Part shown: positions 3,076-16,487 of the stretch, piece after piece
Layout: every line of letters starts with the position of its first letter
Numbering within the stretch: the stretch's first letter is position 1
IMG/VR virus record: IMGVR_UViG_3300033153_011579
Source of the DNA: a virus
Taxonomy: Duplodnaviria > Heunggongvirae > Uroviricota > Caudoviricetes
Length of the DNA stretch: 64,000 nt
Direction: 5' to 3' (one strand)
Translations under genes and position numbers: made by a program
The notes under the pieces: generated by a model
Database searches by the model: none
Told to the model about the DNA's origin: nothing
Seen by the model: only the letters and a program-made list of their open reading frames with translations

Positions 3076-3085
3076 CACGGAGAAG
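2752..3085 (+). repeat. ~335-bp direct repeat, copy A (pairs with 5958-6292, >90% nt identity by eye)
   Basis: Near-identical nucleotide strings that include the trailing CACTGACACGGAG partial element. Confidence 0.8.
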
Positions 3086-3088
3086 AAA

Positions 3089-3519: not shown

Positions 3520-3851
3520 TGATTCGAAACGGCGACAAACCAGGTGAGCGACGGTTAGCTCTTCCGATCCACTTCCGTGGGCCGACCAGGTGCCTCGGGG
3601 TGGAGGGGACCGTCGATGACGACTACAACGTGGTTCCAGTAGGTCGAGCTCGAGCTTGCGTGCTGAAGGACCTCTGCATCCGCTATCGGGACCGAGAAGA
3701 CTATGGACCGGCGACCCCCTGGTACTCCGAGTGTCCTTACGACTGGCAACGGATGATCTGTACGGAATATCAAACTTCGTGGAGAAATCGAGGGCCGGTG
3801 ATGGACCGTTTGGTAGACATCTACGCCGCGATGCCAGCGAGGGAGAAGTAG
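3519..3851 (+). CDS. hypothetical protein (110 aa, Cys-containing)
   Basis: TGATG overlap; GC3 bias. Confidence 0.45.
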   Translation: MIRNGDKPGERRLALPIHFRGPTRCLGVEGTVDDDYNVVPVGRARACVLKDLCIRYRDREDYGPATPWYSECPYDWQRMICTEYQTSWRNRGPVMDRLVDIYAAMPAREK

Positions 3852-3853
3852 TC

Positions 3854-4339
3854 TTGGTTGAAATCACACACGACCGCCTCGTGAAAGCTGCAGCTATCTG
3901 GCTCGGCCAGAAGCATCGAGTGGTCTCCACCGAGCTCGTCTGCAGTACCGTCTCAGAGAACGCCGATGCTATCGGATGGGACGGTTACGGCAGGTGCATG
4001 GTCATCGAGTGCAAGGTCAGCCGCTCAGATTTTCTCGCCAACAAGCACAAACCACACGAGATCGTCGGTGACTCCATGGGGAACGAGCGCTGGTTCATGA
4101 CACCACCTGGTCTTGTCGAGCCAAAGGAGTTGCCGCGCAGCCACGGGCTCCTCGAGTACACGCCCAGTGGCCACGGGTCCGGCTACTTCATCCGCAAGGT
4201 CAAGAAAGCTCGGCCGCGGAAGAGGACGGTCGACCGGCTTTGGAACGAGAACCGAACACTGGTCGCCATCGCAGGCCGTGCTCTCGAGGCCGCTTCGAGG
4301 CTCAAGCCGCTCTGGCTCGGTGACGGCGAGGACGAGTAA
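3854..4339 (+). CDS. PD-(D/E)XK nuclease-like protein (start uncertain; TTG at 3854 follows a GGGAGAAG RBS; the ORF frame is open from 3656)
   Basis: Motif GWDGYGRCMVIECKVSRSDF has D...(V/I)ExK spacing typical of the PD-(D/E)XK fold; it ends DE* directly into an element. Confidence 0.45.
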   Translation: MVEITHDRLVKAAAIWLGQKHRVVSTELVCSTVSENADAIGWDGYGRCMVIECKVSRSDFLANKHKPHEIVGDSMGNERWFMTPPGLVEPKELPRSHGLLEYTPSGHGSGYFIRKVKKARPRKRTVDRLWNENRTLVAIAGRALEAASRLKPLWLGDGEDE

Positions 4340-4369
4340 GAGAATGCCGGATTCTATGACACGGAGGAG
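4336..4369 (+). promoter_or_regulatory. junction element copy (variant with ATG inside the right arm: ATTCTATGACACGGAGGAG)
   Basis: Sequence at this position. Confidence 0.75.
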
Positions 4370-4374
4370 TGAAG

Positions 4375-4581
4375 ATGGGCGTGCGAACAAAAAAGTTGGC
4401 TGAATGGAAACACGCTGCCATCGAGGCGTTCTACCGACTAGATAGCCTCGTCAATGACAGCGAGTGTGACAACGCAGAGGAACCATACTCCGATTGGCAG
4501 CCGTGCGAGGATGGGTGCAACTACTGTGACGATCGCGAGGCGAGGGACAGGATCGCCCAGCTCATGGCCAAGGACCAATAG
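4375..4581 (+). CDS. hypothetical protein (68 aa, Cys-rich C-terminus)
   Basis: Element, then ATG 7 nt after GGAGGAG. Confidence 0.5.
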   Translation: MGVRTKKLAEWKHAAIEAFYRLDSLVNDSECDNAEEPYSDWQPCEDGCNYCDDREARDRIAQLMAKDQ

Positions 4582-4588
4582 GCTGTAA

Positions 4589-4744
4589 GAGAGTGATAGA
4601 TTCTCTGACACGGAGGATAAGTGGATCGACGGCAAGTACAAGGAATCCGGCATGGACATCGATGGCAACCTCGACCGCGAAGTTGCGATCTTCCACCTGA
4701 CCGGTAAGGGGCGGGAGGCCGCGAAAAGCGATGAGGAAAAATGA
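4589..4744 (+). CDS. small ORF with unresolved start (coding frame ...KWIDGKYKESGMDIDGNLDREVAIFHLTGKGREAAKSDEEK*)
   Basis: The GC3-rich frame after element 4585-4617 has no ATG/GTG/TTG before the ATG at 4649; the GTG at 4621 sits in an AT3-rich frame. Confidence 0.3.
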   Translation, partial: ESDRFSDTEDKWIDGKYKESGMDIDGNLDREVAIFHLTGKGREAAKSDEEK

Positions 4745-4845
4745 AAGAGACAATTGTCGAAATCATGTTTGGGTATCTGTATTTTGCGTTGGGTGGGGGT
4801 GCCGTCGCCTATGTGTGGTGGATGAGTAGCACTTTTGGAGGATGA
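4741..4845 (+). CDS. membrane peptide (34 aa)
   Basis: ATGA overlap; hydrophobic FGYLYFALGGGAVAYVWW. Confidence 0.35.
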   Translation: MKETIVEIMFGYLYFALGGGAVAYVWWMSSTFGG

Positions 4846-4846
4846 G

Positions 4847-5050
4847 ATGGACAACCCCGACCTGTACTGCGTGAAGTGCTCGATCGGACTTGGCTTCGGT
4901 CCGCGCGCAACCATCGACAAGAAGGATTACTGCAACGGCTGCGCTGTCTACTTGCTACGCGCCCGCGTGGCCGAACTAGAATCTCAACCGGCGCAGACGA
5001 TGCCTGTCAAACGCACCGTGCGCGAGGCGGTGAACGATGATGTTGATTAG
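4847..5050 (+). CDS. Zn-ribbon-like small protein (67 aa; CVKC...CNGC; paralog of 6817-7152)
   Basis: Shares CxxC...C...RARVAELE(S/A)Q with the ORF at 6817. Confidence 0.5.
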   Translation: MDNPDLYCVKCSIGLGFGPRATIDKKDYCNGCAVYLLRARVAELESQPAQTMPVKRTVREAVNDDVD

Positions 5051-5339
5051 AGCAATCGGCAGCTCCCTGCTCGCAGTGGCGAGCATGACTATCCGTTGGA
5101 TTGCGGCCGACCTTCTAAGGAGTAAAGGAAAACACATGAGATCAACAACAATAGAAAAGATGTGTCAGGCAGCATCGGTACTCGACCGGGAGAAGTTTGA
5201 TGCTCTCGCCGAAGACCTTTTCGACGAACTGGCGGCTTCTACGACTCGGATGTCAGCAGCTATTCACAATTCGTACTGTCCGAAGTGCCTCGAAAAACAA
5301 CTCATAATCGACGACCTGCGGATCGTCGATCCTGACTGA
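5037..5339 (+). CDS. hypothetical protein (100 aa; alternative start at ATG 5138)
   Basis: ORF ending at TGA 5337-5339, immediately followed by a family-2 hairpin. Confidence 0.4.
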   Translation: MMLIRAIGSSLLAVASMTIRWIAADLLRSKGKHMRSTTIEKMCQAASVLDREKFDALAEDLFDELAASTTRMSAAIHNSYCPKCLEKQLIIDDLRIVDPD

Positions 5340-5341
5340 TG

Positions 5342-5359
5342 AGGAATGACACGTTCCTT
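5342..5359 (+). promoter_or_regulatory. family-2 hairpin (AGGAATGACACGTTCCTT)
   Basis: Inverted repeat GGAA/TTCC around TGACACG, directly after a stop codon. Confidence 0.6.
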
Positions 5360-5418
5360 ACGAAGAAAACGAATTTTGTAAGAGAACCCCAAGATTCTCT
5401 GACATGGAGGAGATAGTG

Positions 5419-5682
5419 ATGTTCGACGATTGGTCAACTTGGCAACTAGTACTGACCGGTGTCTTCTACTTTTTTCTGTGTATGCTGATCGGATTTCTTG
5501 CCACAGCCGTCCCAGCCTGGGTGCAGCTGTGGAGGGTCAAACAAGAATGTCGGAGTCGGGTAGCTCAAGCCAATCGAAGGTTTGATCTGTCTACTCGTGA
5601 TTTGTGTAAGAGAATGTCGGTTTCTCTGACACGGAGAAGAGAATGGGAACGGAAAAAGATCAAGACAACGTCAGGCACCTGA
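5419..5682 (+). CDS. small membrane protein (87 aa; 3' end reads through the next element and overlaps the next gene)
   Basis: Element 5378-5410; hydrophobic LVLTGVFYFFLCMLIGFLATAV. Confidence 0.4.
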   Translation: MFDDWSTWQLVLTGVFYFFLCMLIGFLATAVPAWVQLWRVKQECRSRVAQANRRFDLSTRDLCKRMSVSLTRRREWERKKIKTTSGT

Positions 5683-5945
5683 ACCAGGGTGAGCAGGCTT
5701 TTGCCGATCTGATCTCTGTCCTCTCCGACGGGAAGGTCTCCCGCGTCGTGGTGGCCTACTACTGCGAGGAGGACGAGGACGAGGAAGCTGGCTGGTCCTA
5801 CGTCCGGGCCTCGAGACCACCGAGCCCCATCGGTAGCGCCATCGTAGAGGATGTTGGAGCCGCGTCCTTGTTATCCTTGTACGTCAGAGACTGGTACGAC
5901 TCCGCCATGGCGACCGAGACAACCCACGAGGTGCCGCGGAAGTGA
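5643..5945 (+). CDS. hypothetical acidic protein (100 aa)
   Basis: Element 5606-5637, then ATG. Confidence 0.5.
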   Translation: MGTEKDQDNVRHLNQGEQAFADLISVLSDGKVSRVVVAYYCEEDEDEEAGWSYVRASRPPSPIGSAIVEDVGAASLLSLYVRDWYDSAMATETTHEVPRK

Positions 5946-5951
5946 GGACAA

Positions 5952-6282
5952 GATGGCTGTTGAGGAAACAACTGAAGAGCTGGCCCTGGAGGGACGCTCG
6001 GTGGTCATCGAGGTGACCCGCTTTCCCAAGGGCACATCCCGCGGCCGGGTGACATCGCTAGCCGTCGGCATCGAGCCCGACGTGAAGAATGGGGGCGACC
6101 CCGTCGATGTGTCTCCGGCCCTCGTGGTCGACGCGCTGATCTACGCCCTGAAGCTGAACTACGACGCCGAGAGCCAGCACGGGTCAAACGAGACGGCCGA
6201 GGACTACGTCGAGGACGTGGCGCGGATCCTGCTGTCGCAGATCGAGAACGACGAGCCGAGCTCGCTCATGCGGGTTCACTGA
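5952..6282 (+). CDS. hypothetical protein, duplicated-gene copy B (109 aa)
   Basis: ~90% aa identity to 2746-3075; own RBS GAGGACAAG; no full element upstream. Confidence 0.6.
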
Positions 6283-6292
6283 CACGGAGGGG
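5958..6292 (+). repeat. ~335-bp direct repeat, copy B
   Basis: See copy A. Confidence 0.8.
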
Positions 6293-6295
6293 AAG

Positions 6296-6493
6296 ATGAG
6301 CCTGTTTTTTACGACGACAATTCGCGAGGATGTTGAGATCGAGGTCGATGTGGAGTGCTCGAGGTGTGGAGCCGCTCTCACGGCAACATCCAGAAGCGAA
6401 CACATCGGCTCCCACGATGAAAACCACCGGCTGGTGATCCACCCGTGCACCACCTGCTACCCGGTTGGCGCGACGGATACCGAGAGCTCGTAA
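6296..6493 (+). CDS. Zn-ribbon-like small protein (65 aa; CSRCG...CTTC)
   Basis: Partial element CACTGACACGGAGGGG, then ATG. Confidence 0.5.
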   Translation: MSLFFTTTIREDVEIEVDVECSRCGAALTATSRSEHIGSHDENHRLVIHPCTTCYPVGATDTESS

Positions 6494-6529
6494 GAGAATG
6501 TGCGTTTCTCTGACACGGAGGAGTGGCAA

Positions 6530-6802
6530 ATGAATAAAGAGAAGAAACTCAAGAAGCTCGGGATCCCAGACAAGACCGTAACCTGGGAAGAGTTCAAGGA
6601 ACTCCCGCAAACGCGTGGTGAAGGGATCTCCTTTAAAGCGCAAGGTGTTGGGGACTGGAAGGGTGAGTGGTTCTGGTTTGAGTCGCTAGGGGTGGTTGAG
6701 GTCGACCGCGCCTTGGCCGATGGCGAGGTTATCAGAGGAATGAAGGTCAACGCTGGGAACTGGCACAGGCTTGTTGTCGTTCCTCATAATTTTCCTCGCT
6801 GA
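6530..6802 (+). CDS. hypothetical protein (90 aa)
   Basis: Element 6490-6523, then ATG. Confidence 0.5.
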   Translation: MNKEKKLKKLGIPDKTVTWEEFKELPQTRGEGISFKAQGVGDWKGEWFWFESLGVVEVDRALADGEVIRGMKVNAGNWHRLVVVPHNFPR

Positions 6803-6816
6803 CGACCTGTAAGAGA

Positions 6817-7152
6817 ATGGAGCGTTCTATGACAGAGAAAGAGATCAAGCCGAAGATGGTGGATGGCGAGGCGGTGTGTTCTAAAAACTGTCCGCGTTAT
6901 GGGATTGAGCCATGCATGGGGCTTGTTGATTTATCCTCATGCGCCCCCTACTACCGCGCCCGTGTCGCCGAGCTCGAGGCACAGATTTCAAGAATCAGCG
7001 ATACGATCTACCGGGGTGCTCCGCTGTCGTGGGCAAAGGCTGAATTTCACGAGGTCGTGAGCGCCTGGGAGCTGGATCTCTGTATCGCTCTGAACTTATG
7101 CGGCTTCCGCGACGCCCTTGAGCATATTAAGGCGAAGAAAGATTCAGAGTAA
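6817..7152 (+). CDS. Zn-ribbon-like protein (111 aa; alternative start at 6829 inside the element)
   Basis: Degenerate element with ATG embedded (TTCTATGACAGAG); paralog of 4847. Confidence 0.5.
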   Translation: MERSMTEKEIKPKMVDGEAVCSKNCPRYGIEPCMGLVDLSSCAPYYRARVAELEAQISRISDTIYRGAPLSWAKAEFHEVVSAWELDLCIALNLCGFRDALEHIKAKKDSE

Positions 7153-7180
7153 GAGAATTTTACGTTCTCTGACACGGAGA
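7149..7180 (+). promoter_or_regulatory. junction element copy
   Basis: GTAAGAGAATtttacgTTCTCTGACACGGAGAA. Confidence 0.8.
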
Positions 7181-7185
7181 AAAAG

Positions 7186-7674
7186 ATGAAGACACAAAAA
7201 GAGATTGCAGACCGAGTGAGCAAGTTAGGCAAATCAGACTTCTTCGGGTTCAGGGCAGAGGTACTGATCGGCTACTTGGGTATGGAACTGCTGGTGCCGT
7301 TCTTGAAGGAGGGTGCCCGCAAGCGGTTTGAAGAAGACAAGGAGAATCCCTGGACTGACCCGGTTTTCACAGAAGATGAGGTCAAGAAGGACATGCTCGA
7401 CTATCTCAAATTCGCTTTTGAGAAGTGTTTAGACCACCGTGGTATCTCCGCGAACCGGAGCATCGAGAAACTCGTTGAGTGGGCGTGGATTCTGGGGAGG
7501 GACGACCTGGTGGAGTTCGCAGGAGAGGCAGGCAACTTCCGAAATTACGGTGCGCCGGTTCTAAAGAAATTCGCTGAGGGGTTCGAGATAGAGCTGCCCG
7601 AGGACGAGCGGTTTCACCGAATGGCTCGTGGAGAGCGCTGCGGAGCGGACTACGCTTGCGGTTGTAACGAGTGA
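7186..7674 (+). CDS. hypothetical protein (162 aa, C-terminal CGADYACGC)
   Basis: Element, then ATG. Confidence 0.6.
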   Translation: MKTQKEIADRVSKLGKSDFFGFRAEVLIGYLGMELLVPFLKEGARKRFEEDKENPWTDPVFTEDEVKKDMLDYLKFAFEKCLDHRGISANRSIEKLVEWAWILGRDDLVEFAGEAGNFRNYGAPVLKKFAEGFEIELPEDERFHRMARGERCGADYACGCNE

Positions 7675-7712
7675 GCTTGTAAGAGAATTTTGCATTCTCT
7701 GACACGGAGAAG

Positions 7713-8054
7713 ATGATGAATCAGGATAGAGTAATCGAAATAGTGAGGGGCTGGCGGTGTCCTCACTGCTTCATGGAGTACGAGAACATTAAGGAAGCCC
7801 AGGAGTGCGATCAGCAGTGCTCCGCCTTCCTCGACGATGCTCCCCCAACTTGTGACTGGTGTGATCAGCCGGGAGAACACGAGAGTCCAGTCGAGGGGCT
7901 ACACTTTCTCATCAACTGTGGGCACTACATGTACGGTATGCATGAGGACGATAGTGGGGACGCTGAGAACGACCGCTACGAGACCGTCCAGCGGTTACGC
8001 GGTGTCGAGGCCCTTCCATGGGAGTACCCAGACGTCGGAGTGAAAGATGAATAA
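7713..8054 (+). CDS. Cys-rich zinc-finger-like protein (113 aa)
   Basis: Element 7679-7709; CPHC...CDQQC...CDWCD...CGH. Confidence 0.55.
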   Translation: MMNQDRVIEIVRGWRCPHCFMEYENIKEAQECDQQCSAFLDDAPPTCDWCDQPGEHESPVEGLHFLINCGHYMYGMHEDDSGDAENDRYETVQRLRGVEALPWEYPDVGVKDE

Positions 8055-8376
8055 GCCAGAAGAAGACTTTGGTCTCGTGGTCGAACTTCACGGCCCGCGC
8101 GTGATTCATCGGTGCCGAGACTGTGATCACAGGTTCGGGTCTCCGCCCAGGCATTGGCAATGTAAGGCGCACCCGCGTCACCTGGAAAACCCAGAATATG
8201 CTCTTCATTTGGTCGGAAGAGAGTTGGATGAAAGCGAGCTCACAGACGGATATGGGTTTTGTGACCTCATCCGTGTGGCGACACAGCCGACGTGTCCTGA
8301 GTTCGAGCCGCGTAGACCGGCGAGTGCTGGATTTGTGTCTTGGTGGAGAAGGCTGTTGGCGAAGTTCGGTCTGTAA
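8047..8376 (+). CDS. hypothetical protein (109 aa; CRDCDH...CKAH)
   Basis: ATGAATAA overlap with the preceding stop. Confidence 0.5.
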   Translation: MNKPEEDFGLVVELHGPRVIHRCRDCDHRFGSPPRHWQCKAHPRHLENPEYALHLVGRELDESELTDGYGFCDLIRVATQPTCPEFEPRRPASAGFVSWWRRLLAKFGL

Positions 8377-8410
8377 GAGAATTTATGATTCTCTGACACG
8401 AGATGGGTAG

Positions 8411-8650
8411 ATGAAGAAGCGAGCAAAACGAGTCGAAAGATTCCATGTGAGGTGTCCCTTTTGTGGCGATCTCGTGGACATCATGACGTCGCTCTCTTGG
8501 TGCTCTGGGTGTTTTGTCGAGTGGTACCGTACACGAGCTTGCAATTACATTTTTGATACCGAGAGGAAGACCGAGAGGTTCGTGTGGGCCAAGGCGGTGC
8601 AGAAGTCCGGAGGCATGCGGATCGCCTCAGCCAACGAGGACGATGAGTAA
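8411..8650 (+). CDS. Zn-ribbon-like protein (79 aa; CPFCG...CSGC)
   Basis: Element 8373-8405 (SD weakened to GACACGAGATGGG). Confidence 0.5.
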   Translation: MKKRAKRVERFHVRCPFCGDLVDIMTSLSWCSGCFVEWYRTRACNYIFDTERKTERFVWAKAVQKSGGMRIASANEDDE

Positions 8651-8679
8651 GAGAATTCAGGATTCTCTGACACGGAGGA
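8647..8679 (+). promoter_or_regulatory. junction element copy
   Basis: GTAAGAGAATtcaggATTCTCTGACACGGAGGATG. Confidence 0.8.
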
Positions 8680-8683
8680 TGAG

Positions 8684-9052
8684 ATGTGGAACAGAGTAAT
8701 ATTCGCGGGCTGGATGGTAGTCGCGTTGCTGATCGGGGTCCTATTCGGCGCAGGCCTCTACCAAACCTGGCCGGCTAATCCCGACGTGATCGAGGACACC
8801 GAACCCTCAAGCGGTCGGCCCCTAGAGATCGAGATCTGCTCAGACGCGGCTGACCACTGCAACGATTCGGAGGACTGCGTAGAGGACGTATTCTCGCGGT
8901 GTCTTTACCACCTCGGGACGCCAACAATGTCCGACTGTCACGAAGAGTGCGCAGGGATCATGAAGGAGCTAAGCGACAAGAACGATGCGTGCTGGGATAG
9001 CTTCATGAACTGCCAAGACGTACTCGACGAGGTGTGGCGAGAAGCGCTGTAA
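8684..9052 (+). CDS. membrane-anchored acidic Cys-rich protein (122 aa; paralog of the minus-strand ORF 32459-32836)
   Basis: N-terminal TM segment then Cys-rich ectodomain; the C-terminus HEECAGIMKELSDKNDACWDSFMNC resembles CREECAEIVRDLSRANDDLWERWLAC. Confidence 0.55.
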   Translation: MWNRVIFAGWMVVALLIGVLFGAGLYQTWPANPDVIEDTEPSSGRPLEIEICSDAADHCNDSEDCVEDVFSRCLYHLGTPTMSDCHEECAGIMKELSDKNDACWDSFMNCQDVLDEVWREAL

Positions 9053-9091
9053 GAGAATTGAGAATTCTCTGACACGGAAAAGAGGAACTCA

Positions 9092-9349
9092 GTGACTGAC
9101 GACATCATCCAGATTCGAACCGCGCCAGGATGCCGCAAGGAAAAGCCGATGCGGTATCTGGTGTTCCGCATCGAGTGCTACTACCCAGCGGGTGGGTGGG
9201 ACGACCTCGAAGCGACGACCAACGACAAGGAAACCGCAATCGAACTGGCCAAGAAAATTGAGGCTGAATTCAGCAGCGGCGAGGTGATTGACCTCGATAC
9301 TGGGACTCGCCTTTACCCGCCGTGGCGCGGTGACGACGAGGACGAGTAA
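9092..9349 (+). CDS. hypothetical protein (85 aa; GTG start)
   Basis: Element 9049-9085; ends DE*TAA into the next element. Confidence 0.5.
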   Translation: MTDDIIQIRTAPGCRKEKPMRYLVFRIECYYPAGGWDDLEATTNDKETAIELAKKIEAEFSSGEVIDLDTGTRLYPPWRGDDEDE

Positions 9350-9378
9350 GAGAATTGGCGATTCTCTGACACGGAGAG
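9346..9378 (+). promoter_or_regulatory. junction element copy
   Basis: GTAAGAGAATtggcgATTCTCTGACACGGAGAGG. Confidence 0.8.
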
Positions 9379-9382
9379 GAAG

Positions 9383-9634
9383 ATGACCAGGCTCGAACAG
9401 TACCAAAAACTCCACGAGATCTTCCTCGTGAACAGGTTTTCGGACGTGTTGACCGAGGCTGAAGAAGACGACCTGCTCTACGCCCTGGACGCCGTTTGGT
9501 GGCAGATGACGAGTGCGGAGCACGCCGAAGCGGAGAAGGACACCTGGATGTGGAATCGGGTGCTGCGGGGATGGTTCGCGCACATCGATCCCGCTGGCGG
9601 AACGAACAACCCAGTGATGAAGTGGAGCTTGTAA
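9383..9634 (+). CDS. hypothetical protein (83 aa)
   Basis: Element, then ATG. Confidence 0.5.
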   Translation: MTRLEQYQKLHEIFLVNRFSDVLTEAEEDDLLYALDAVWWQMTSAEHAEAEKDTWMWNRVLRGWFAHIDPAGGTNNPVMKWSL

Positions 9635-9669
9635 GAGAACTGACAATTCCCTTACACGAGGAGGAGAGG

Positions 9670-9945
9670 ATGAGGCGGAATCGCAGAACAATGGTGGCCA
9701 CAAGCACGATAGGTTCGTGGATGAGCCGAGTGTATAGACTGGAAGCTGAGAACGAAAAGCTTCGTACTGATCTTCTCTTCGCCAAAGCAAAGATTAAGGC
9801 GATCCGGGTACGTATTGAGATGGTCGATGATGGGGAGAGCTGTTACCAGTCACACGACGCGGTACCAGACATTCTCAACATTCTGCGTGGGGGGACGCTT
9901 TGGACAGGAAGTCCACAGTACGCCGCCGTCAAAAAACGCCTGTAA
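9670..9945 (+). CDS. hypothetical protein (91 aa, coiled-coil-like N-terminus)
   Basis: Degenerate element 9631-9666, then ATG. Confidence 0.5.
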   Translation: MRRNRRTMVATSTIGSWMSRVYRLEAENEKLRTDLLFAKAKIKAIRVRIEMVDDGESCYQSHDAVPDILNILRGGTLWTGSPQYAAVKKRL

Positions 9946-9982
9946 GAGAACCGACTGACTCTATTACACGAGGAGATAATAG

Positions 9983-10465
9983 ATGCACGGGCTAGGAAGA
10001 AGAGGAAACCGCCGGAAGAAACGCCTGAAGAAACATCGAGGCCGTACTCCTGCTAGAGTTTCGGCATCCAGCAAGGTCTACAACACTACCTCCAGGACCG
10101 TCGTCAAGACTGCTGCGCCCAGCACCGTCGTCACGTTCGACGACGTAGCTGATCTGGCCGAGGCGACCCTCGACGAGGAGAACGTGACCGCGCTGTTCAT
10201 GCGGTACGACAATAACATCAGGCCAACGCTCTTCTACACTGCCTACGCGGAAACTCCGTCTGGGCGCGTCTTCCTCCAGGCAGTCCATGTACTGTCGAAA
10301 GATGAGATCTACGAGAACCCAAAACACCCGCTGCCCTGTTACAGGGACGGCAAGGACATGAGGTGCCCCTATCCGCAGGAGCACATCATCGACAGGGCCG
10401 TTGAGTACTGGGAGTCCCGAGGGATTGACGTCTACGAGGGCACGGTGGAGATGAAGATTTTGTAA
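9983..10465 (+). CDS. hypothetical protein (160 aa, basic N-terminus)
   Basis: Degenerate element 9942-9974. Confidence 0.55.
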   Translation: MHGLGRRGNRRKKRLKKHRGRTPARVSASSKVYNTTSRTVVKTAAPSTVVTFDDVADLAEATLDEENVTALFMRYDNNIRPTLFYTAYAETPSGRVFLQAVHVLSKDEIYENPKHPLPCYRDGKDMRCPYPQEHIIDRAVEYWESRGIDVYEGTVEMKIL

Positions 10466-10499
10466 GAGAACCTTCTATTCCCTGACATGGAGGATTGAG

Positions 10500-10733
10500 A
10501 TGAAAACGGGAGAACGCGAACTGTTCAAGGTAACCGGACGACCTGGTCGCCGTATCTGGCGCAAACAAGCCGGAGCGCGAGGGTACCGACCCATCTGGAC
10601 CTCCGACTACGTTGAGGAGGTTGACGGGAAGTTCTTCTGCACGATTCGGAGTGAGTCCGAGAACGACCTGCCGATGGAGCAGCACGATAACCTTCAAGAC
10701 GCGCTCGAGTGGTTGATGAGGGATCGGACGTAA
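10500..10733 (+). CDS. hypothetical protein (77 aa)
   Basis: Element 10462-10495. Confidence 0.5.
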   Translation: MKTGERELFKVTGRPGRRIWRKQAGARGYRPIWTSDYVEEVDGKFFCTIRSESENDLPMEQHDNLQDALEWLMRDRT

Positions 10734-10762
10734 GAGAATCAACGATTCTCTGACATGGAGGA
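10730..10762 (+). promoter_or_regulatory. junction element copy
   Basis: GTAAGAGAATcaacgATTCTCTGACATGGAGGAC. Confidence 0.8.
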
Positions 10763-10766
10763 CAGG

Positions 10767-10961
10767 ATGAAACGCACGCTGTTGACCGAGATCGACTTTG
10801 ACCGTCAGAGCTGTCGGGTCATCGAGGCGGAGATCATCAAGTGCAACACCTGTAAGGGTAGCGGTTGGAAAGAGGTTTCGACGCACCGCGGAAACTACAG
10901 ACGCCGCTGTGCTCAGTGCCACGGCACAGGCAAGGTGCTGGTGGGACCGAAGGTTCGATGA
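10767..10961 (+). CDS. DnaJ-type zinc-finger-like mini-protein (64 aa; CNTCKGSG ... CAQCHGTG)
   Basis: Two CxxCxGxG repeats. Confidence 0.45.
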   Translation: MKRTLLTEIDFDRQSCRVIEAEIIKCNTCKGSGWKEVSTHRGNYRRRCAQCHGTGKVLVGPKVR

Positions 10962-11002
10962 CTGTAAGAGAACAGACGATTCTCTGACACGAGGAGAGAA
11001 GG

Positions 11003-11254
11003 ATGAATTTCAGTAACGAGCAAATGACAGAGTGGCTGTCGGAGGTTCCGGAAGCTACCAGCGTACGCTGCGTGGCTATCCCTCCGTACATCAGTAAAGA
11101 GATGAAGGAGCGGCCAGTGATTCCGTGGGATCTGCTTACCCGAGAAGTCAACAACAAGATAGGTGATGGTGACCGCGTACTCGGGATTCGTGCTGCGGGG
11201 GCCAACTCCTACGGCAATTACTGGATCATCATTTGGGTTGGCAACAAAGAGTGA
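11003..11254 (+). CDS. hypothetical protein (83 aa)
   Basis: Element 10964-10996. Confidence 0.5.
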   Translation: MNFSNEQMTEWLSEVPEATSVRCVAIPPYISKEMKERPVIPWDLLTREVNNKIGDGDRVLGIRAAGANSYGNYWIIIWVGNKE

Positions 11255-11293
11255 GCTTGTAAGAGAAACTAATATTCTCTGACGGAGGAGAGC

Positions 11294-11527
11294 ATGGACA
11301 ACGATACCAAAAGACTGTGTGGCAACTGCTTCTGGTTTGATCAAGAGCTCTGTCGACGACTGCCACCGCGCATGATTGACCAGGTAGATCTTTATGAAAA
11401 AGATAGTGAGTTCAACACCTGGAATGCCAGTTACGCAGACGACTACACCTCTTGGCCAGTTGTAGAAGAGAAAGCCTGGTGCGGAGAATGGCGATCGAAG
11501 GAAGACGGCTGGCCCGTCGGTAAGTAA
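11294..11527 (+). CDS. Cys-containing hypothetical protein (77 aa)
   Basis: Element 11259-11290. Confidence 0.5.
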   Translation: MDNDTKRLCGNCFWFDQELCRRLPPRMIDQVDLYEKDSEFNTWNASYADDYTSWPVVEEKAWCGEWRSKEDGWPVGK

Positions 11528-11559
11528 GAGAATCAAACATTCTCTGACACGAGGAGAAG

Positions 11560-11673
11560 ATGATGGAAATTCTAATTTTTTGGCTGTGCTTTTGTGGACT
11601 CGGAGCCGTTGGTATATTGGTAGCGTCCTTGGTGATCCTCAGTGAGGAACGTCAACGAAACGGTCGCCAGTAA
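11560..11673 (+). CDS. membrane peptide (37 aa)
   Basis: Element 11524-11556; hydrophobic ILIFWLCFCGLGAVGILVASLVIL. Confidence 0.35.
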   Translation: MMEILIFWLCFCGLGAVGILVASLVILSEERQRNGRQ

Positions 11674-11714
11674 GAGAATCAGCACGTTCCCTGAAAGGAA
11701 GATTGGAGAACAAA

Positions 11715-11927
11715 ATGTCGAAGAACACGGTCACGCAGCACGTTTTGGTTGATTCCCATGTTGAGTGCTTCCCTGAGGAATTCCTCGAAGCACTTCTCGC
11801 AGTTTGTCCGGCTCCCTTGGCACCGGACAGTCTTAAACAACTCCGTGACATAGGGAGAGTCCAGTTGAGCCTCTGGCTTTCCCCGGAGGACTTGAAGCGC
11901 TGGACAGGTAAAGCGCCAGGGGAATGA
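11715..11927 (+). CDS. hypothetical protein (70 aa)
   Basis: Hybrid element 11670-11700; the stop TGA lies inside a family-2 hairpin. Confidence 0.45.
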   Translation: MSKNTVTQHVLVDSHVECFPEEFLEALLAVCPAPLAPDSLKQLRDIGRVQLSLWLSPEDLKRWTGKAPGE

Positions 11928-11936
11928 CACTTTCCC
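11919..11936 (+). promoter_or_regulatory. family-2 hairpin (GGGAATGACACTTTCCC) containing the stop codon
   Basis: Sequence at this position. Confidence 0.6.
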
Positions 11937-11976
11937 TGTGCCTACACAACAACCGCCTAGTGGGGCAAGGAGTAGG

Positions 11977-12330
11977 ATGATGACAGAGCATACATTGACC
12001 GTTGGTGGAAGCGAGGTCGTGGTTTCGAGTAACCCTGTTTCAAGGGACCTTGTCGGCTCGGACCGCAGCTTCGGAGATGAACGCGCGCACCCATGTCCGA
12101 ACTGTAGCAAAAATAGTCTGCGCTACCATTTCCTCGACTACAGGCCTGCGCTGTCGTGGGCCTGCGTCGAGTGTGGCTATGCTGAGCACCCGCCGATTGA
12201 AAAGTTGGTTGCCGATGGGTACTCCCCGCAGAAGGTAGAGGAGGATTGGTCGACCTGCATTTACCCAAAGGAGTGGATGCTTTACTCCCCGCTTGAGCGG
12301 TTAGCGTCACCACAAACACGAAAGGATTAG
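11977..12330 (+). CDS. Zn-ribbon-like protein (117 aa; CPNC...CVEC)
   Basis: RBS AAGGAG; GC3 bias. Confidence 0.45.
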   Translation: MMTEHTLTVGGSEVVVSSNPVSRDLVGSDRSFGDERAHPCPNCSKNSLRYHFLDYRPALSWACVECGYAEHPPIEKLVADGYSPQKVEEDWSTCIYPKEWMLYSPLERLASPQTRKD

Positions 12331-12334
12331 AACG

Positions 12335-12685
12335 ATGGGTTTGTTTTCACCACCAGGCCAAGCTCCAGATCTCCGAGAGGCGAAAGATGTTAGAGTTATC
12401 GTCACCCTATGCAAGGACGAAGAACCAGGTGATGGATATGTCCGAACACAGATAACCGCTCTCGATGAACTCGAGGAGGGTGAAGAGGGTTTAAATATTA
12501 ACGGAGACAACGTCTTTGAGGCACTGGTTTACGCGCTGTACCACCACTTTGTAAACGAGCACGAGGTTGGGCATTCTTGTTGCCTTACTCATTTTATCGA
12601 AGAGATCACAGACCTACTGGAGCGTGTCAACGAGACTGACGGAAACGAAAAGGTCAGTCGGAGTTCTGAAGAACACACACATTAA
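12335..12685 (+). CDS. hypothetical acidic protein (116 aa)
   Basis: ORF with GC3 bias. Confidence 0.5.
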   Translation: MGLFSPPGQAPDLREAKDVRVIVTLCKDEEPGDGYVRTQITALDELEEGEEGLNINGDNVFEALVYALYHHFVNEHEVGHSCCLTHFIEEITDLLERVNETDGNEKVSRSSEEHTH

Positions 12686-12725
12686 TAAGGGTTATTGCAT
12701 CAGCTGCGGACCGTCGACCCTGTAT

Positions 12726-12746
12726 GAGGAATGACACGTTCCCTGG
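12726..12746 (+). promoter_or_regulatory. family-2 hairpin (GAGGAATGACACGTTCCCTGG) in a ~285-bp gene-poor stretch
   Basis: Sequence at this position. Confidence 0.55.
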
Positions 12747-12971
12747 TGGGAGAACGTCGAACTGGAGTGAGAGGAGTTTGAATGTTTAAAGCACGTCGAG
12801 TTCTCCGAGCGCGCGGTGAGTGTGGACGGGGGCCTGCGTTGGGTTTTTGTGACGAATTCTCCTTAGCAGGCCTTCTACGTGGAGTGCTTCAACCATTCCA
12901 TCGACCTACTCGACCCACTCACCGCGCGCTCGGAGAACTCGACGGCACGCAGTCGGGGGAAGGAGAAAAGA

Positions 12972-13181
12972 ATGCGAAAATATCGATTTCAGCACGATGA
13001 GGATGGTGACGTGCTGTGGGTCTACATCGCCGGTAACTCCGCGTACCCAGGGGAGCACCGCTTCGATCCACCAGAAGTTTTGGAGGCCTACATCGGTTAC
13101 CTTCGAGCATGTAAAGGTGATCAACTTGATTCTGATGTAGTTATCGCCTGGAAGGACAGTGCTTGGGGTCCGGATGTCTGA
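12972..13181 (+). CDS. hypothetical protein (69 aa)
   Basis: RBS GGAAGGAGAAAAG; the overlapping ORF 12782-13000 has weak GC3 bias and is less likely. Confidence 0.45.
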   Translation: MRKYRFQHDEDGDVLWVYIAGNSAYPGEHRFDPPEVLEAYIGYLRACKGDQLDSDVVIAWKDSAWGPDV

Positions 13182-13196
13182 TGACACGTTCCCTGG
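13180..13196 (+). promoter_or_regulatory. family-2 hairpin variant overlapping the stop (TGATGACACGTTCCCTGG)
   Basis: Sequence at this position. Confidence 0.5.
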
Positions 13197-13232
13197 TACC
13201 CCTATGCCCAAACACTAGGCAGGAGGAATGAG

Positions 13233-13412
13233 ATGTCTGAAAAGAAAGCTGTGGTTCAACGTGTTGTCATCCACGAACTCTTGGATGCAGGTGTGGTGGC
13301 GATCGAAGGACGTGATCTTGTGTTCGAGTCCCCCTGGGACAAGGGCTCAGAGGCGATGATTGCTTTGATGAAGAAAGGCCTCGTCAAAGACGTGGTCCGG
13401 GACAGGGAATGA
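13233..13412 (+). CDS. hypothetical protein (59 aa)
   Basis: RBS AGGAGGAA; the stop TGA lies inside family-2 hairpin 13405-13423. Confidence 0.4.
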   Translation: MSEKKAVVQRVVIHELLDAGVVAIEGRDLVFESPWDKGSEAMIALMKKGLVKDVVRDRE

Positions 13413-13437
13413 CACGTCCCCTGAAAGGAGAAGCCCG

Positions 13438-13713
13438 ATGGGTCAAACAACATCCGACAATCCAGGTGGAGTGAAGTCGCTCTTCGAAGATAACAACTCA
13501 CAAAAAGCTACTGCCTCCACGCTCGCCGGATACCTCGTCGAAGATGGTGCTTGGATGGTATTGCCAGATGGGGACCGCGAGATCACTATTGTGCGGCACA
13601 GAGACTATGGCACGATCATGTATCTCATTGATGGTCCAGGCGAGGATATAAGAAGCGGCGTAGTAAAAACGGTGCGAGAACTCGCTGACGCCATCGCCGT
13701 TGGTGGGGAATGA
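13438..13713 (+). CDS. hypothetical protein (91 aa)
   Basis: Hairpin + AAAGGAGAAG RBS; the stop TGA lies inside family-2 hairpin 13706-13723. Confidence 0.5.
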   Translation: MGQTTSDNPGGVKSLFEDNNSQKATASTLAGYLVEDGAWMVLPDGDREITIVRHRDYGTIMYLIDGPGEDIRSGVVKTVRELADAIAVGGE

Positions 13714-13737
13714 CACGTTCCCTAGGAACTTGAGCTT

Positions 13738-13770
13738 GTAAGAGAATCTCGCATTCTCTGACACGGAGGA
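13738..13770 (+). promoter_or_regulatory. junction element copy immediately downstream of a family-2 hairpin
   Basis: GTAAGAGAATctcgcATTCTCTGACACGGAGGAA. Confidence 0.8.
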
Positions 13771-13774
13771 AAAA

Positions 13775-13954
13775 ATGGACGAACACATGAGATATTTAGG
13801 CTGCCTGAAACTACTTGAGGATTGCTCACCTTACGTACCGGAAGAGATTCGTGAGGGTATCGAGATGGCTCACGACGATGCTGTAGAGGCCAGCAACGGG
13901 ACCTTGCGGGCTCGCAGTGTGCTCGATCGACGAGAGATCGAGGTGGTGACGTAA
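13775..13954 (+). CDS. hypothetical protein (59 aa)
   Basis: Element, then ATG; the stop is the TAA of the next element. Confidence 0.4.
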   Translation: MDEHMRYLGCLKLLEDCSPYVPEEIREGIEMAHDDAVEASNGTLRARSVLDRREIEVVT

Positions 13955-13985
13955 GAGAATCCGCACGTTCTCTTACACGGAGGAA

Positions 13986-14189
13986 ATGATGGGTAAAGAT
14001 GTGAGGACCAAGACATTCGCTATGATGTTTCGGGAGCGCTGCGTGATCATGCGGGATGCTTTCGACCGCCGTGACGTAGAGGGCTTTGCTACTGCTCTCA
14101 AGGACGTTGAGCGCCTGATGCGAGAGCACGCCGAGGGGTGCGGCTGCTCACAATGCCGAGAGACGCTGAAGATCATGAATGAGGTGTAA
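13986..14189 (+). CDS. hypothetical protein (67 aa; C-terminal CGCSQC)
   Basis: Element 13951-13983. Confidence 0.5.
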   Translation: MMGKDVRTKTFAMMFRERCVIMRDAFDRRDVEGFATALKDVERLMREHAEGCGCSQCRETLKIMNEV

Positions 14190-14223
14190 GAGAATACACA
14201 CGTCCTTTAACACGGAGGAAACG

Positions 14224-14460
14224 ATGAGTACTGTTCTGGATAATGACCAAAAATTGATGGTAATTCTGGCGGTTGTGGTGGCACTCTTCCTGTTAATTTT
14301 GGCTGGTGGGAAGCTTATTGGTGATGTTTTGTCACCCCCAACACCCCAAGAGGACTGTATGAACCAGGCCCAGCAGCTGGACAGCGAGGAGTCTGAGAAA
14401 GAAGCCTACTACAAGTGTCTTGAGTCTTTAGGGCTGGAAGATCCTAAAAAGGCTTTGTAA
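14224..14460 (+). CDS. small membrane protein (78 aa)
   Basis: Element 14186-14218; TM segment MVILAVVVALFLLILAGG. Confidence 0.5.
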   Translation: MSTVLDNDQKLMVILAVVVALFLLILAGGKLIGDVLSPPTPQEDCMNQAQQLDSEESEKEAYYKCLESLGLEDPKKAL

Positions 14461-14492
14461 GAGAATCTTCCGTTCTCTGACACGGAGAAGAA

Positions 14493-15164
14493 GTGAAGCT
14501 GAGAAAACCACCAATCCTCTGCTCGATCTGCGGAGACCCAATCGTCACGAAGTGGCGAGACAAGCGAAGGCAGACCTGCGGGTCTCCCGAGTGCCGGGTG
14601 GCGATCCTGCTCGAGCCGCACCTGGGCGACCGGACTCGACCGTACGCCGGCGGAGCTCGCGGGAAGTGGAAAAAAAGCACCAAGCGCGGGTCGGTGGTGC
14701 GCGACCTCGCGAAGTGGGGTATTGGGCTTTCCGAGGAGATCTCCACGAACCTCGCCGACGCGGCCGACCAGGTCTTTAAGAGAACCAAAACCGCGAAGGC
14801 GGTCGGGACGAAGAAGGACGAGCGCGGTGCGGACCACCCGGAGGCCCAGGCTCAGATCTGGGGCTTCCTCGCTCGTAGGAGCGCGCTCATAAAAGTCGTC
14901 AGCAAGGACGACGGCGAGCCCGGGTTGCTCATTCTCAAAACCAAAAGCGAGAGTGTCCCGCACGCCATCCGCCGTCTCCTGAGCATCACCCCGGTCTCCG
15001 AGAACCTGTGCGATGTCTTCATGGCGTGGAGCTGTCCTTGCCCTCAGGACTCTCGAGTGATTTACGAAACGATCGACGACCTGCCCAAGACGGTAGGCTA
15101 TCACGACCCGTGCCCGCGTTGCGGTGCGGCACCACTGGAGGTGAAAAATGTTCCTAAAAAATAG
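14493..15164 (+). CDS. hypothetical protein with N- and C-terminal Zn-ribbon-like Cys pairs (223 aa; GTG start)
   Basis: Last element copy 14457-14487; strong GC3 bias; CSICG...CGSPEC ... CPRCG. Confidence 0.55.
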   Translation: MKLRKPPILCSICGDPIVTKWRDKRRQTCGSPECRVAILLEPHLGDRTRPYAGGARGKWKKSTKRGSVVRDLAKWGIGLSEEISTNLADAADQVFKRTKTAKAVGTKKDERGADHPEAQAQIWGFLARRSALIKVVSKDDGEPGLLILKTKSESVPHAIRRLLSITPVSENLCDVFMAWSCPCPQDSRVIYETIDDLPKTVGYHDPCPRCGAAPLEVKNVPKK

Positions 15165-15528
15165 CGTGTTCCTTCCCGGGCGAGGCTGGCTACTCGTGAA
15201 GCCACCGGAGTCGGAAGCCGACACAGGAGAGGTCTACACTGTCGACGTGATCGAGCTCGCCGCCGAGGAGAAGTCCGCGTGCCCGCAGTTCCAGGAGGAG
15301 ACAGCGATACGCGGTGCTGGCGGCGCTCCGATGATGACCGTGGACATCGTGCTCCCGAAGCGCTGCTACGTCGGTGACCGGTGGAGCGTACTAAAGGACA
15401 GAGACGCAGTGCGCGAGGTACCCGACCTGGACGGTGCCCTGCTCAAGACCGAGGAGGTGATCGGCTGGGAGTGGGAGGACGACCGTCTCAAGCCGCCTCC
15501 TGGCGTCGTAGAGGACCTGGACTCCTGA
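15148..15528 (+). CDS. hypothetical protein (126 aa); weak GroES/gp31-like pattern
   Basis: RBS GGAGGTGA then ATG; GRGWLLVKP...GEVYTV...VGDRWSV loosely recalls the Cpn10 fold. Confidence 0.4.
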   Translation: MFLKNSVFLPGRGWLLVKPPESEADTGEVYTVDVIELAAEEKSACPQFQEETAIRGAGGAPMMTVDIVLPKRCYVGDRWSVLKDRDAVREVPDLDGALLKTEEVIGWEWEDDRLKPPPGVVEDLDS

Positions 15529-16487
15529 TGCCGACCAGAGCACACATCCAGGCGTTGGCCAACGCGAGAGAGGCTCTCGAGCCGTTCAGCCGGTGGCTCG
15601 TCCGCGGGTGCGGGAAGACCGATGGAGAGGCCGACTTCATCATCAGCTTCGTGTGTCGCGCGCTGTGGACTTCCACCGCCGACGACGACGAGGATCCCGA
15701 CCCGCTCGATTGCCTCTCCGAGCCGATGATCACCCGGCCGACATTCAACAAGCTGAAATCGGCCATCCGGCAGTATTACACCTGGCACCTCGTCCGGCAG
15801 TCGTCGCCACCGAGTGAGAAAGAGCGGGCGAGGCGGCAGCTCAGGCGGCTCGAATCCATCTTGCCGTACGGCGGCGTCGGGAGACGAGCCAAACGGGTCG
15901 CGATCGATGCGCTGTCGCAGGCGGATTTAAAAAAGCTCATGGACGGACTGAAAAAATGGCACGCGGAACAAGGACGGCGATGGCCCTGGAGCTACCCGGT
16001 GATCAGCATGTGCCTGAAGATCTCGCCGGCGATCAGAAACTGTCTGGTCTACCTCTCTCGTGAGGAGCTCGTCCTCGCTCTCGCCGACGGGGTGAACAGC
16101 GGGTCGTTCAACCTGTGGGTCCGCCAGAAGAACGTGCCGGTCATGAGGTCGATCCCCATCGGGCTCGTCTGGAAAGAGGCGGACATGCTCGTCGGCTGGC
16201 CCTGGCAATGGGAGACGCTCCAGGACATTATCTCGTCGTCCAACGCGAGCACCCAGAACTCGGTGAACAAGATCAAAGAGATCTCTTTCAAGTACTATCG
16301 CCACGTCCTGGGAGACATCGGCGACCCGAAGACGTTCTTAGCTCGACTTCGGTATGCCACCTGGGTCTGGCTCTTGAAAAAGACGAAAGGCGACTGGCTC
16401 TCCGTCGCGCAGATCGTCGGGAAGTCGGTAAAGATCCTCAGAAGACGGCCGGAGCTGCTCGAGGTCGTGTCGAGGAGGCTGAACTAG
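15526..16487 (+). CDS. hypothetical protein (320 aa)
   Basis: ATGA overlap; the long ORF table entry begins upstream at 15381, but the in-frame ATG at 15526 matches the preceding stop. Confidence 0.5.

Follow-up and report, generated by a model that had tools for sequence, protein, structure and literature searches.

The 64,000-nt stretch of IMG/VR record IMGVR_UViG_3300033153_011579 (hereafter the window, always at its full length), from a virus of the Caudoviricetes, carries two sets of short hairpins at the ends of small genes, and the question this locus raises is whether the second, smaller set represents a signal of its own. The main element, F1, combines a stop codon, a hairpin and a ribosome-binding site. 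The second hairpin family, F2, was described in the initial annotation as a GGAA/TTCC stem placed on stop codons and sharing the heptamer TGACACG with the main element. The DNA comes from an uncultured phage represented by an 82-kb Joint Genome Institute (JGI) contig, with near-identical fragments in three samples. Comparison of the two families identifies F2 as a hairpin-only recombinant subfamily of a single family of junction elements, not a new kind of signal. F2 keeps the 17-nt F1 core, GRGAAT-N5-RTTCYC, with one A-T pair changed to G-C, as well as the right half of an F1 subtype with a CACG loop, and it has lost both the outer arms (TGT...ACA) and the TGACACG-GGAGG ribosome-site box.

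Copies of F2 and their stop codons

Three exact matches to GGAATGACACGTTCC, at 5343, 12728 and 13707, and two that differ from it at one position, at 11921 and 13406, all lie on the plus strand. When up to two mismatches are allowed, the F2 consensus has five matches, compared with 0.13±0.37 expected from 100 shuffles. The heptamer TGACACG occurs 25 times on the plus strand within 1157–14484, and 27 times on both strands of the window versus 11.2 expected. All six copies and the hybrid listed in the initial annotation are recovered, although its coordinates run 1–2 nt low and the copy it placed at 13180 is a partial one:

5340–5360 (core 5343–5357), plus strand: F2 copy 1, hairpin UGAGGAAUG-ACA-CGUUCCUUA
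11669–11705, plus strand: hybrid, F1 left half GTAAGAGAAT joined to F2-type right half CACGTTCCCTGAAAGGA
11918–11937 (core 11921–11935, one mismatch), plus strand: F2 copy 2, TGA at 11925–11927 is the stop of gene 11715–11927
12727–12743 (core 12728–12742), plus strand: F2 copy 3, 42 nt after the TAATAA stop of gene 12335–12685
13179–13196, plus strand: F2 copy 4, partial, true stop at 13179–13181 with the element's TGA immediately after
13403–13423 (core 13406–13420, one mismatch), plus strand: F2 copy 5, TGA at 13410–13412 is the stop of gene 13233–13412
13704–13724 (core 13707–13721), plus strand: F2 copy 6, 9-bp stem, TGA at 13711–13713 is the stop of gene 13438–13713

The relationship of these copies to stop codons is less uniform than was proposed. 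All six lie 0–47 nt after the upstream stop, and three of them contain it: the TGA of the element is the true stop at 11925, 13410 and 13711. It is not the stop at 5347 or 12732, and at 13182 it is a second in-frame stop following the real TGA. The true stop of gene 5136–5339 lies 8 nt upstream of copy 1, and the gap between the TAATAA stop and copy 3 contains an in-frame remnant, LRTVDPV-stop, of the C-terminus found upstream of copy 1. Copy 4 is reduced to TGA-TGACACGTTCCCTGG; its 5' arm is gone, which makes the GGAA/TTCC stem impossible, and its surroundings fold into another hairpin. The hybrid at 11671 reads GTAAGAGAAT-CAGCAC-GTTCCCTGAAAGGA, and its TAA is the stop of gene 11560–11673.

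The arrangement of the copies along the block agrees with the earlier description. Five of the six fall in the 11.6–13.8 kb interval, and the direct succession of F2 by F1 noted at 13707/13739 is repeated at 5343/5379, the F1 copies extending over 13737–13773 (a canonical copy) and 5377–5414. Copy 5 is followed 16 nt downstream by the Shine-Dalgarno (SD) sequence and ATG of the next gene. As also reported, no U-tract follows any copy, with at most three T residues in the 10 nt past any stem. An intrinsic (Rho-independent) terminator is thus rejected, and the view that F2 is not a plain terminator holds: stems are short, and a terminator scan of 1–17.5 kb yields 19 sites versus 13.6±3.6 expected, none of them on a plus-strand F1 or F2 copy.

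Folding of F2

RNAfold predicts that F2 RNA adopts the fold GGGAAUG-ACA-CGUUCCC, a stem of 7–9 bp closed by an ACA triloop, with U.G and G-C pairs inside TGACACG. The proposed GGAA/TTCC stem with TGACACG as a 7-nt loop is therefore revised: the heptamer forms the top of the stem plus the triloop. Hairpin-region energies range from -8.1 to -13.1 kcal/mol (37-nt segments; the four copies with the hairpin as minimum free energy structure). Copy 2 reaches -14.8 kcal/mol in a 45-nt window (z=-2.3), and the hairpin of copy 6 has -10.7 kcal/mol. An Rfam scan of 1–16500 returns no family above its gathering threshold. Its only match, to the fluoride riboswitch at 11920–11984 (plus strand), overlaps copy 2 and the leader of gene 11977; at 20.1 bits (gathering score 34; E=0.11) it is judged to be chance.

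Relation of F2 to F1

The F1 element reads TGTaAGAGAAT-N5/6-ATTCTCTgACA-CG-GAGGAG-N3-8-ATG, an 11+5+11 palindrome of 27 nt that is longer than first described. F2, written as GGGAAT-GACAC-GTTCCC, has the same 6+5+6 geometry as F1 GAGAAT-N5-(A/G)TTCTC and differs from it by one compensated pair. MAFFT aligns the two families arm to arm, and in this register 85.8% of cells are paired, versus 29–54% when the partner is slid. At the aligned pair 7–22, AU is present in 24 sequences, GC in six and GU in two. The 17-nt core that defines the F1 family (GRGAAT and RTTCYC arms with a 5–6-nt spacer) is present in every F2 copy except 13179, which has no 5' arm, and F2 shares the location of F1 at cistron boundaries in the direction of the genes. 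F2 lacks the outer palindrome, TGTA...T(G/T)ACA, and the CG-GAGGAG box before an ATG, and its flanks differ.

Three further lines of comparison connect the families. First, an F1 subtype has 6-nt loops that end in CAC and are followed by GTTC; its members are the window copies at 13952, 14187 and 11671 and, in contig L026 from a related phage, the copies at 11805 and 12287. The F2 loop, GACAC, lies inside the loop variation of this CACG subtype (CCGCAC, CAGCAC, CTGCAC and ACACAC, each then GTTC). Second, the right half of F2 5343, CACGTTCCTTAC, is nearly that of the L026 F1 copy at 12287, CACGTTCCTTTAC. Third, flanking sequence is shared in a mosaic fashion. F2 5343 and 12728 have 27 nt upstream in common, including the C-terminal coding remnant, and 42 nt at copy 12728 are 85.7% identical to 5312–5353; the right flank CCCTGAAAGGA is common to the hybrid at 11671 and F2 13406.

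A covariance model built from F1 only does not recognize F2 (no significant match; best 8.6 bits, E=4.6), which counts against joining the families; it scores the hybrid at 19.7 bits (E=0.015). What ties F2 to F1 is therefore the 17-nt core together with the hybrid, the flanking sequences and the genomic niche that both occupy.

The initial annotation took the common TGACACG, in or next to the loop of both families, as a shared recognition determinant. This claim is weakened on five counts. In F2 the UG and CG pair, leaving an ACA triloop; in F1 TGACA forms the palindrome's outer right arm and is paired with TGT.A around the TAA stop; the box is polymorphic in relatives, T[G/T]ACA[C/T]G, where the T variant completes the palindrome; the F2 loop falls within the variation of an F1 loop subtype; and the F1-only model misses F2. 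In its favor, F1 has an alternative fold, UUCUCUG-ACA-CGGAGRA, with the same UG[ACA]CG apex as F2, though this fold is weaker (mean -4.7 versus -7.0 kcal/mol) and is disrupted in TTACACG variants. The identity of the 7-mer in the two families could reflect descent plus chance, and the sharing is mostly a by-product of descent rather than a common loop determinant. The alternative F1 fold, in which the right arm pairs with GGAGG and sequesters the SD, was rejected for this weakness and for its disruption in TTACACG variants.

The gene array and its borders

The elements populate an array of about 45 small plus-strand genes located between a tyrosine-recombinase gene (Int) and a conserved gp223/gp319 module. 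There are 35 elements in 13 kb, and stop codon, palindrome and SD are fused in one 36-nt module. The main landmarks are:

82–969, plus strand: Int, tyrosine recombinase, 5' border of the array, catalytic R..HxxR..H..Y present
1135–14492, plus strand: span of the F1 family, 29 copies including the hybrid
3073–3085, plus strand: TGACACG-GAGAAG box without a hairpin, whose TGA is the stop of the 109-amino-acid gene 2746–3075
11715–13713, plus strand: F2 zone, seven small genes with F2 instead of F1 at their junctions
14493–16487, plus strand: 3' border, consisting of zinc-ribbon gp223 (14493–15164), gp126 and gp319 (15528–16487)

A 57-amino-acid gene separates Int from the array, and a PDB sequence search with Int gives no match. 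The other border has gp319, which is paralogous to Int (22% identity, E=9e-7); its C-terminal H...Y catalytic motif appears to be missing. All relatives retain gp319 after gp223. When the 45 proteins of the array and its borders are scanned with Pfam and PHROG, no nuclease, repressor or RNA-binding domain is detected.

F1 copies extend to 14.5 kb, with no significant copy beyond, and they score on the minus strand as well because the element is palindromic. TAA is the stop of the upstream gene in 20 of the 29 copies (binomial p=9e-5), and at no F1 copy does an upstream open reading frame read through to the TGA of the right arm. Junctions without an element are overlapping or a few nucleotides wide; the elements therefore delimit units of one to four genes. 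Besides the box at 3073, a second hairpin-less TGACACG-SD box lies at 6280–6292, and the same stop-SD box is found at 8704 in the related contig L025. At these three sites (3073, 6280 and L025 8704), the TGACACG-GGAGG box alone is a compact stop-SD junction.

The 109-amino-acid gene is duplicated (2746–3075 and 5953–6282, 91.6% nucleotide identity), and both copies end in a hairpin-less TGACACG-SD box. The gene at 12335–12685 is a distant paralogue, and homologues with plain junctions are present in relatives L017, L018 and L025 (about 66–69% amino acid identity). Some F1 copies have a conserved 5' extension (1118–1139, 4318–4339, 8630–8650 and 9328–9349; L026 11975–11999), which in both the window phage and L026 encodes an acidic tail, GD(G/D)EDE-stop or NEDEDR-stop, on otherwise unrelated proteins.

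The F2 zone differs in composition from its surroundings. The G+C content at third codon positions (GC3) is 0.53 in its genes versus 0.67 in the rest of the array (Mann-Whitney p=0.002), and the gene preceding the isolated F2 at 5343 also has a GC3 of 0.53. The hybrid forms the left edge of the zone and the F2-F1 tandem, with copy 6, its right edge. This layout points to arrival of the F2 zone by recombination within elements.

The array appears to be one long operon. A sigma-70-like promoter precedes Int, and no promoters or terminators are found inside the array. Contig L030, from the same phage, carries a gene for a sigma-70-family factor at 3433–4107, some 1.4 kb before the first position of the window; it matches PF04542 and PF04545 as well as RpoS/RpoH/SigK-like NCBIfam models. 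Inspection by eye places the promoter after this gene, at the head of the Int-array operon, with three genes and then Int following it, and promoter-like sequences are seen, also by eye, at the operon head in relatives L022, L025, L026 and L028. A promoter scan of 1–17.5 kb gives four sites versus 5.6 expected from shuffles, none of them at F2.

Comparison with related phages

Int homologues at 54–62% identity define five lineages, represented by contigs L020/21, L022–24, L025, L026/27 and L028/29. The gene order Int ... gp223 - gp126 - gp319 is kept in all five, and the interval between Int and gp223 contains 0, 0, 2, 8 and 6 small genes, respectively, versus about 45 in the window. The closest full-length relative, L020 (JGI 3300041085, 81 kb), has Int adjoining its gp223 homologue and carries no junction elements. 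It was deposited as a Planctomycetota metagenome-assembled genome contig, and this label is the sole hint of a host.

The F1 covariance model finds six copies in L026 and one in L022, and none in L019, L020, L025 or L028. Five of the six L026 copies are 87–100% identical to the window consensus, while int and gp223 have 69% and 57% nucleotide identity. Four L026 copies share a spacer with a window copy (CAACG, TGACA, CTCGC(C) and CCGCAC), and the genes flanking them are unrelated; array genes of L026 and the window are not homologous. The L026 array includes a ribosomal protein S12/S23-like gene (PF00164) at 9849–10232, and an AcrVA2-like gene (PF26125) is located nearby, at 5869–7059. The more distant relatives L017, L018 (66% identity in the 109-amino-acid protein) and L019 have plain SD junctions and no elements. 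The near-identical contigs L015, L016 and L030–32 (99.9%) exhibit no variation in elements or cassette content.

The lineage is very poorly sampled. Neither megablast of 1–16000 nor tblastn with a 681-amino-acid protein of the window finds a match among GenBank phages. Exact F1 patterns retrieve nothing from IMG/VR (two versions) or GTDB genomes, and three matches in metagenomes are all one unrelated sequence. The F2 16-mer has 11 single matches in IMG/VR, in unrelated contigs of 37–65% GC, all attributable to chance.

Possible functions of the junction elements

The reading we tentatively prefer, at somewhat less than even confidence and from sequence evidence, is that the elements may be intercistronic stem-loops that act in cis on a polycistronic mRNA, with F2 supplying the 3'-end half. 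The 5' arm or apex of each stem-loop would contain the stop of the preceding cistron, and the F1 stem-loop would also present the next SD 2 nt past the stem. The translation start of each shuffled gene would be insulated from its neighbors, and processing would leave a defined, exonuclease-resistant 3' end. F2, which marks the 3' ends of one- or two-gene units of lower GC3, would supply just the stop or 3'-end half; a full F1 or a separate SD would for that reason come after it. Action as RNA is favored by the orientation of all copies in the gene direction, by their strict stop/SD phasing, and by their confinement to the intercistronic gaps of a long operon. The initial annotation had also suggested an RNase site; predicted stem lengths of 7–11 bp argue against a site for RNase III.

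Several observations weigh against this proposal, in addition to the failure of the F1-only model to detect F2. The TGA of F2 is the stop in three of six copies compared with an expectation of one third, which is not significant (p=0.32), and F2 fold z-scores are modest, between -0.5 and -2.3 (45-nt windows). Among core stem mismatches, G.U and A.C number 24 versus 14 overall and 12 versus 9 in F1, which is no G.U bias, and A.C mismatches predominate in L026; the mismatches thus speak for RNA pairing no more than they do for a DNA palindrome. Arms conserved in sequence around variable loops are the classic signature of a dimeric DNA-binding site. Finally, the initial annotation tied its proposal to conservation of the motif in related phages, and the outcome is divided: F1 is conserved in L026 and L022, and F2 is found in none of L017–L030, which are few and mostly fragments.

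These same properties lend some weight to a possible, if doubtful, alternative in which the inverted repeat works at the DNA level as a stoperator-like operator. A dimeric phage protein would bind the double-stranded repeat and so silence the array or set its timing. Zinc-ribbon gp223 and the apparently degenerate Int paralogue gp319 are the candidate binders, and F2 would be a half-site variant, possibly of different specificity. The arms are conserved within the genome and across phages with the 5-nt spacer left free, the half-site centers have a spacing of 11 bp, the changes in F2 are symmetrical between the two half-sites, and mismatches have no G.U preference; Pope et al. came to the same conclusion for comparable inverted repeats of mycobacteriophages (PMC3203893). 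However, no recognizable repressor or helix-turn-helix protein is encoded among the array or border genes, and relatives L020, L025 and L028 have the same border proteins without any such sites. Moreover, a site acting purely as DNA would need neither the stop phasing (20/29), nor an SD 2 nt away, nor the lack of reading-frame run-on to the right-arm TGA.

It is unlikely, though conceivable, that F2 is a functionless recombination scar. The joint would have arisen where a TGACACG-SD box and a CACG-subtype F1, in its loop and right arm, share the microhomology CACG, and would since have been copied along with genes, the elements mattering solely as short homologies for cassette swapping. This would fit copy 13179, which keeps TGACACGTTCCCTGG without a 5' arm, as well as the mosaic sharing of flanks, a constant loop that suggests recent duplication, and the absence of F2 from relatives. 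F1 sites with the same spacers (CTCGC then CCGCAC) are found beside unrelated genes in both the window and L026, and the acidic GD(G/D)EDE-stop tails on unrelated proteins likewise point to joints close to elements. On the other hand, a good hairpin is kept in five of six copies, among them 5343, with A-U in compensated exchange for G-C, and 13707, with additional outer pairs. Copies always lie at the ends of units, and F1 is far more conserved than neutral DNA.

A more active role for recombination is improbable. In such a scheme F1 would be the core site of the adjacent tyrosine recombinase, and the array an integron- or pdif-like phage cassette system with F2 as a degenerate site. With gp319 or gp223 as helper, units of right arm-SD-open reading frame-stop-left arm would be swapped between co-infecting phages at matching spacers, and F2 and the hybrid at 11671 would be products or decayed forms of such exchanges. 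The 11+5/6+11 geometry resembles dif/pdif, and the array is flanked by an Int with intact catalytic residues and by an Int paralogue. The number of genes between Int and gp223 varies widely among phages (0, 0, 2, 6, 8 and about 45), the hybrid crossover lies in the spacer, identical spacers flank non-homologous genes in two phages, and arms are kept while spacers vary. Yet the sites have no similarity to attC (no RYYYAAC/GTTRRRY) or to the arms of dif; all of them are direct repeats fused to translation signals; conservation extends upstream into coding tails, which a precise spacer exchange would not need; L022 and L020 have Int beside gp223 and no array; and no structural variants are seen among the four near-identical contigs.

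A transcription signal, either a promoter for a phage sigma factor or a terminator/attenuator, is very improbable: although the DNA just upstream of the window encodes a sigma-70-family factor and the F1 blocks TGTAAG and TGACAC are 16 nt apart, a typical -35/-10 spacing, transcription would begin at or beyond the conserved SD, F2 has no TGTAAG block or conserved downstream -10, there is no U-tract, neither the promoter nor the terminator scan is significantly above shuffles, and the promoter-like intergenic regions at 36154–36465 and 41208–41465 look sigma-70 and have no F1 or F2 motif.

More specific candidates were also rejected. A sigma-70-type promoter, with -35 and -10 hexamers 16–18 nt apart upstream of the SD, has no scan site at F2. 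Sigma-54 (TGGCAC-N5-TTGC) and extracytoplasmic function/SigR-type (GGAAT-N18-GTT) readings of F2 have critical bases or spacing wrong when inspected by eye. An N4-type hairpin promoter was considered for the triloop; there is no giant virion RNA polymerase gene in the window and no N4-like PHROG match. For a selenocysteine insertion sequence (SECIS) or readthrough, the UGA is located in the apex, and further in-frame stops come within 3–11 codons.

Comparison with known systems

The closest analogue of F1 and F2 is the start-associated sequence (SAS) and extended SAS (ESAS) of Cluster K mycobacteriophages, an analogue by architecture rather than a system to which they belong. In both, a short asymmetric box with an SD sits a few nucleotides before the starts of many non-structural genes, and about half of the boxes have an inverted repeat with a variable spacer just upstream. 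Upstream stops can lie within the element, some inverted repeats occur without an SAS, which is the situation of F2, and the consensus differs between related phages. The sequences, however, are unrelated (GGGATAGGAGCCC versus TGACACGGAGGAG on the F1/F2 side), and neither family has GGGATAGGAGCCC preceded by 17-bp inverted repeats. The ESAS element measures about 50 bp and has arms of 17 bp, compared with F1/F2 arms of 6–11 nt, and the F1 repeat ends 2 nt from the SD. ESAS are currently believed to include SigA-like promoters; F1 and F2 fit no promoter hexamers. The host lineage is another one, possibly Planctomycetota, and the density is far higher, with 35 elements in 13 kb. The function of SAS/ESAS is still unexplained; Pope et al. 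argued for a DNA-level reading of the ESAS inverted repeats (PMC3203893).

Other systems, namely attC, dif/pdif, repetitive extragenic palindromic sequences (REPs), stoperators and T7 RNase III sites, each share some features with F1 and F2, which probably belong to none of them. In Cluster A mycobacteriophages, stoperators are 13-bp asymmetric sites distributed genome-wide and bound by the immunity repressor. F1 and F2 resemble them in having many copies in short intergenic gaps, in one orientation to transcription and often touching stop or start codons. They differ in being palindromic and confined to one array, whose own and border proteins include no recognizable repressor. REPs are chromosomal, G+C-rich, more stable and linked to RAYT transposases. 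Like REPs, bacterial interspersed mosaic elements (BIMEs) and intercistronic stem-loops, F1 and F2 are repeated imperfect palindromes just past stops in operons, without a U-tract, and could block 3' exonucleases. REPs, unlike F1, are not fused to the SD of the next gene, and no RAYT is found among the proteins scanned.

Integron attC sites and Acinetobacter pdif sites are likewise associated with promoterless genes in one orientation, with imperfect inverted repeats of conserved arms and variable centers, with an adjacent tyrosine recombinase, and with cassette content that varies between relatives. The attC sites have R'' RYYYAAC and R' GTTRRRY cores, lengths of 57–141 nt, extrahelical bases, and a divergently transcribed IntI with an extra domain. 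Here the arms are TGTAAGAGAAT/ATTCTCTGACA or GGGAAT/GTTCCC and the length is 17–27 nt, Int is co-directional with the array and weakly Xer-like, and all F1 and F2 sites have one orientation. The 11+5/6+11 geometry of F1 matches dif/pdif; its arm sequences are unlike dif, neither family is similar to the XerC/D arms, and F2 arms are just 6–7 nt. RNase III sites of T7 are irregular hairpins of about 50–60 nt, roughly two helical turns. They too are non-terminator hairpins between the cistrons of an early polycistronic mRNA, but F2 at 7–9 bp and F1 at up to 11 bp with a mismatch are short for RNase III.

Repeats at gene junctions in the non-structural regions of phages, such as SAS/ESAS and stoperators, are common and mostly unexplained, and the lineage of the window is an unusually clean and dense example. 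F2 illustrates how such modules break apart and recombine, giving a hairpin without a box, a box without a hairpin, and hybrids. The whole array is a more interesting object than F2 itself, as conserved 36-nt modules surround unrelated genes, with a recombinase and its apparently inactive paralogue at the borders. Array content is wholly different in each relative, a pattern typical of accessory or counter-defence regions. A decision between action as RNA and action as DNA would reveal how expression of newly shuffled genes is maintained in phages, or how the shuffling occurs. A cassette system, if real, would explain the interval of 0 to about 45 unrelated genes, the same-spacer sites, and conserved arms with variable spacers. 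The junction module could also serve as a portable standard junction for engineered polycistronic constructs.

Other features of the window

Most of the large, presumed structural proteins encoded at 38230–53571 (plus strand; 681, 605, 352 and 321 amino acids, among others) have no Pfam, PHROG or GenBank-phage tblastn match. On the minus strand, 26259–27368 encodes an adenylosuccinate-synthetase homologue (PF00709) whose best match is the PurZ PHROG phrog_1211 (E=1e-51). Pfam searches of the genes neighboring this PurZ-like gene find no DatZ or MazZ partner. The phage may have DNA containing 2-aminoadenine (Z), judging from this homologue; if present, the base would change how the A/T-rich arms are recognized at the DNA level. 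Finally, a repeat of about 45 nt, ttcatttttccgctctctttctggccggaaccacccggct, is present at 18551–18633 and at about 19440–19490; each site is at the 5' end of a minus-strand gene, and the gene at 17597–18598 encodes a CheY-like receiver domain.

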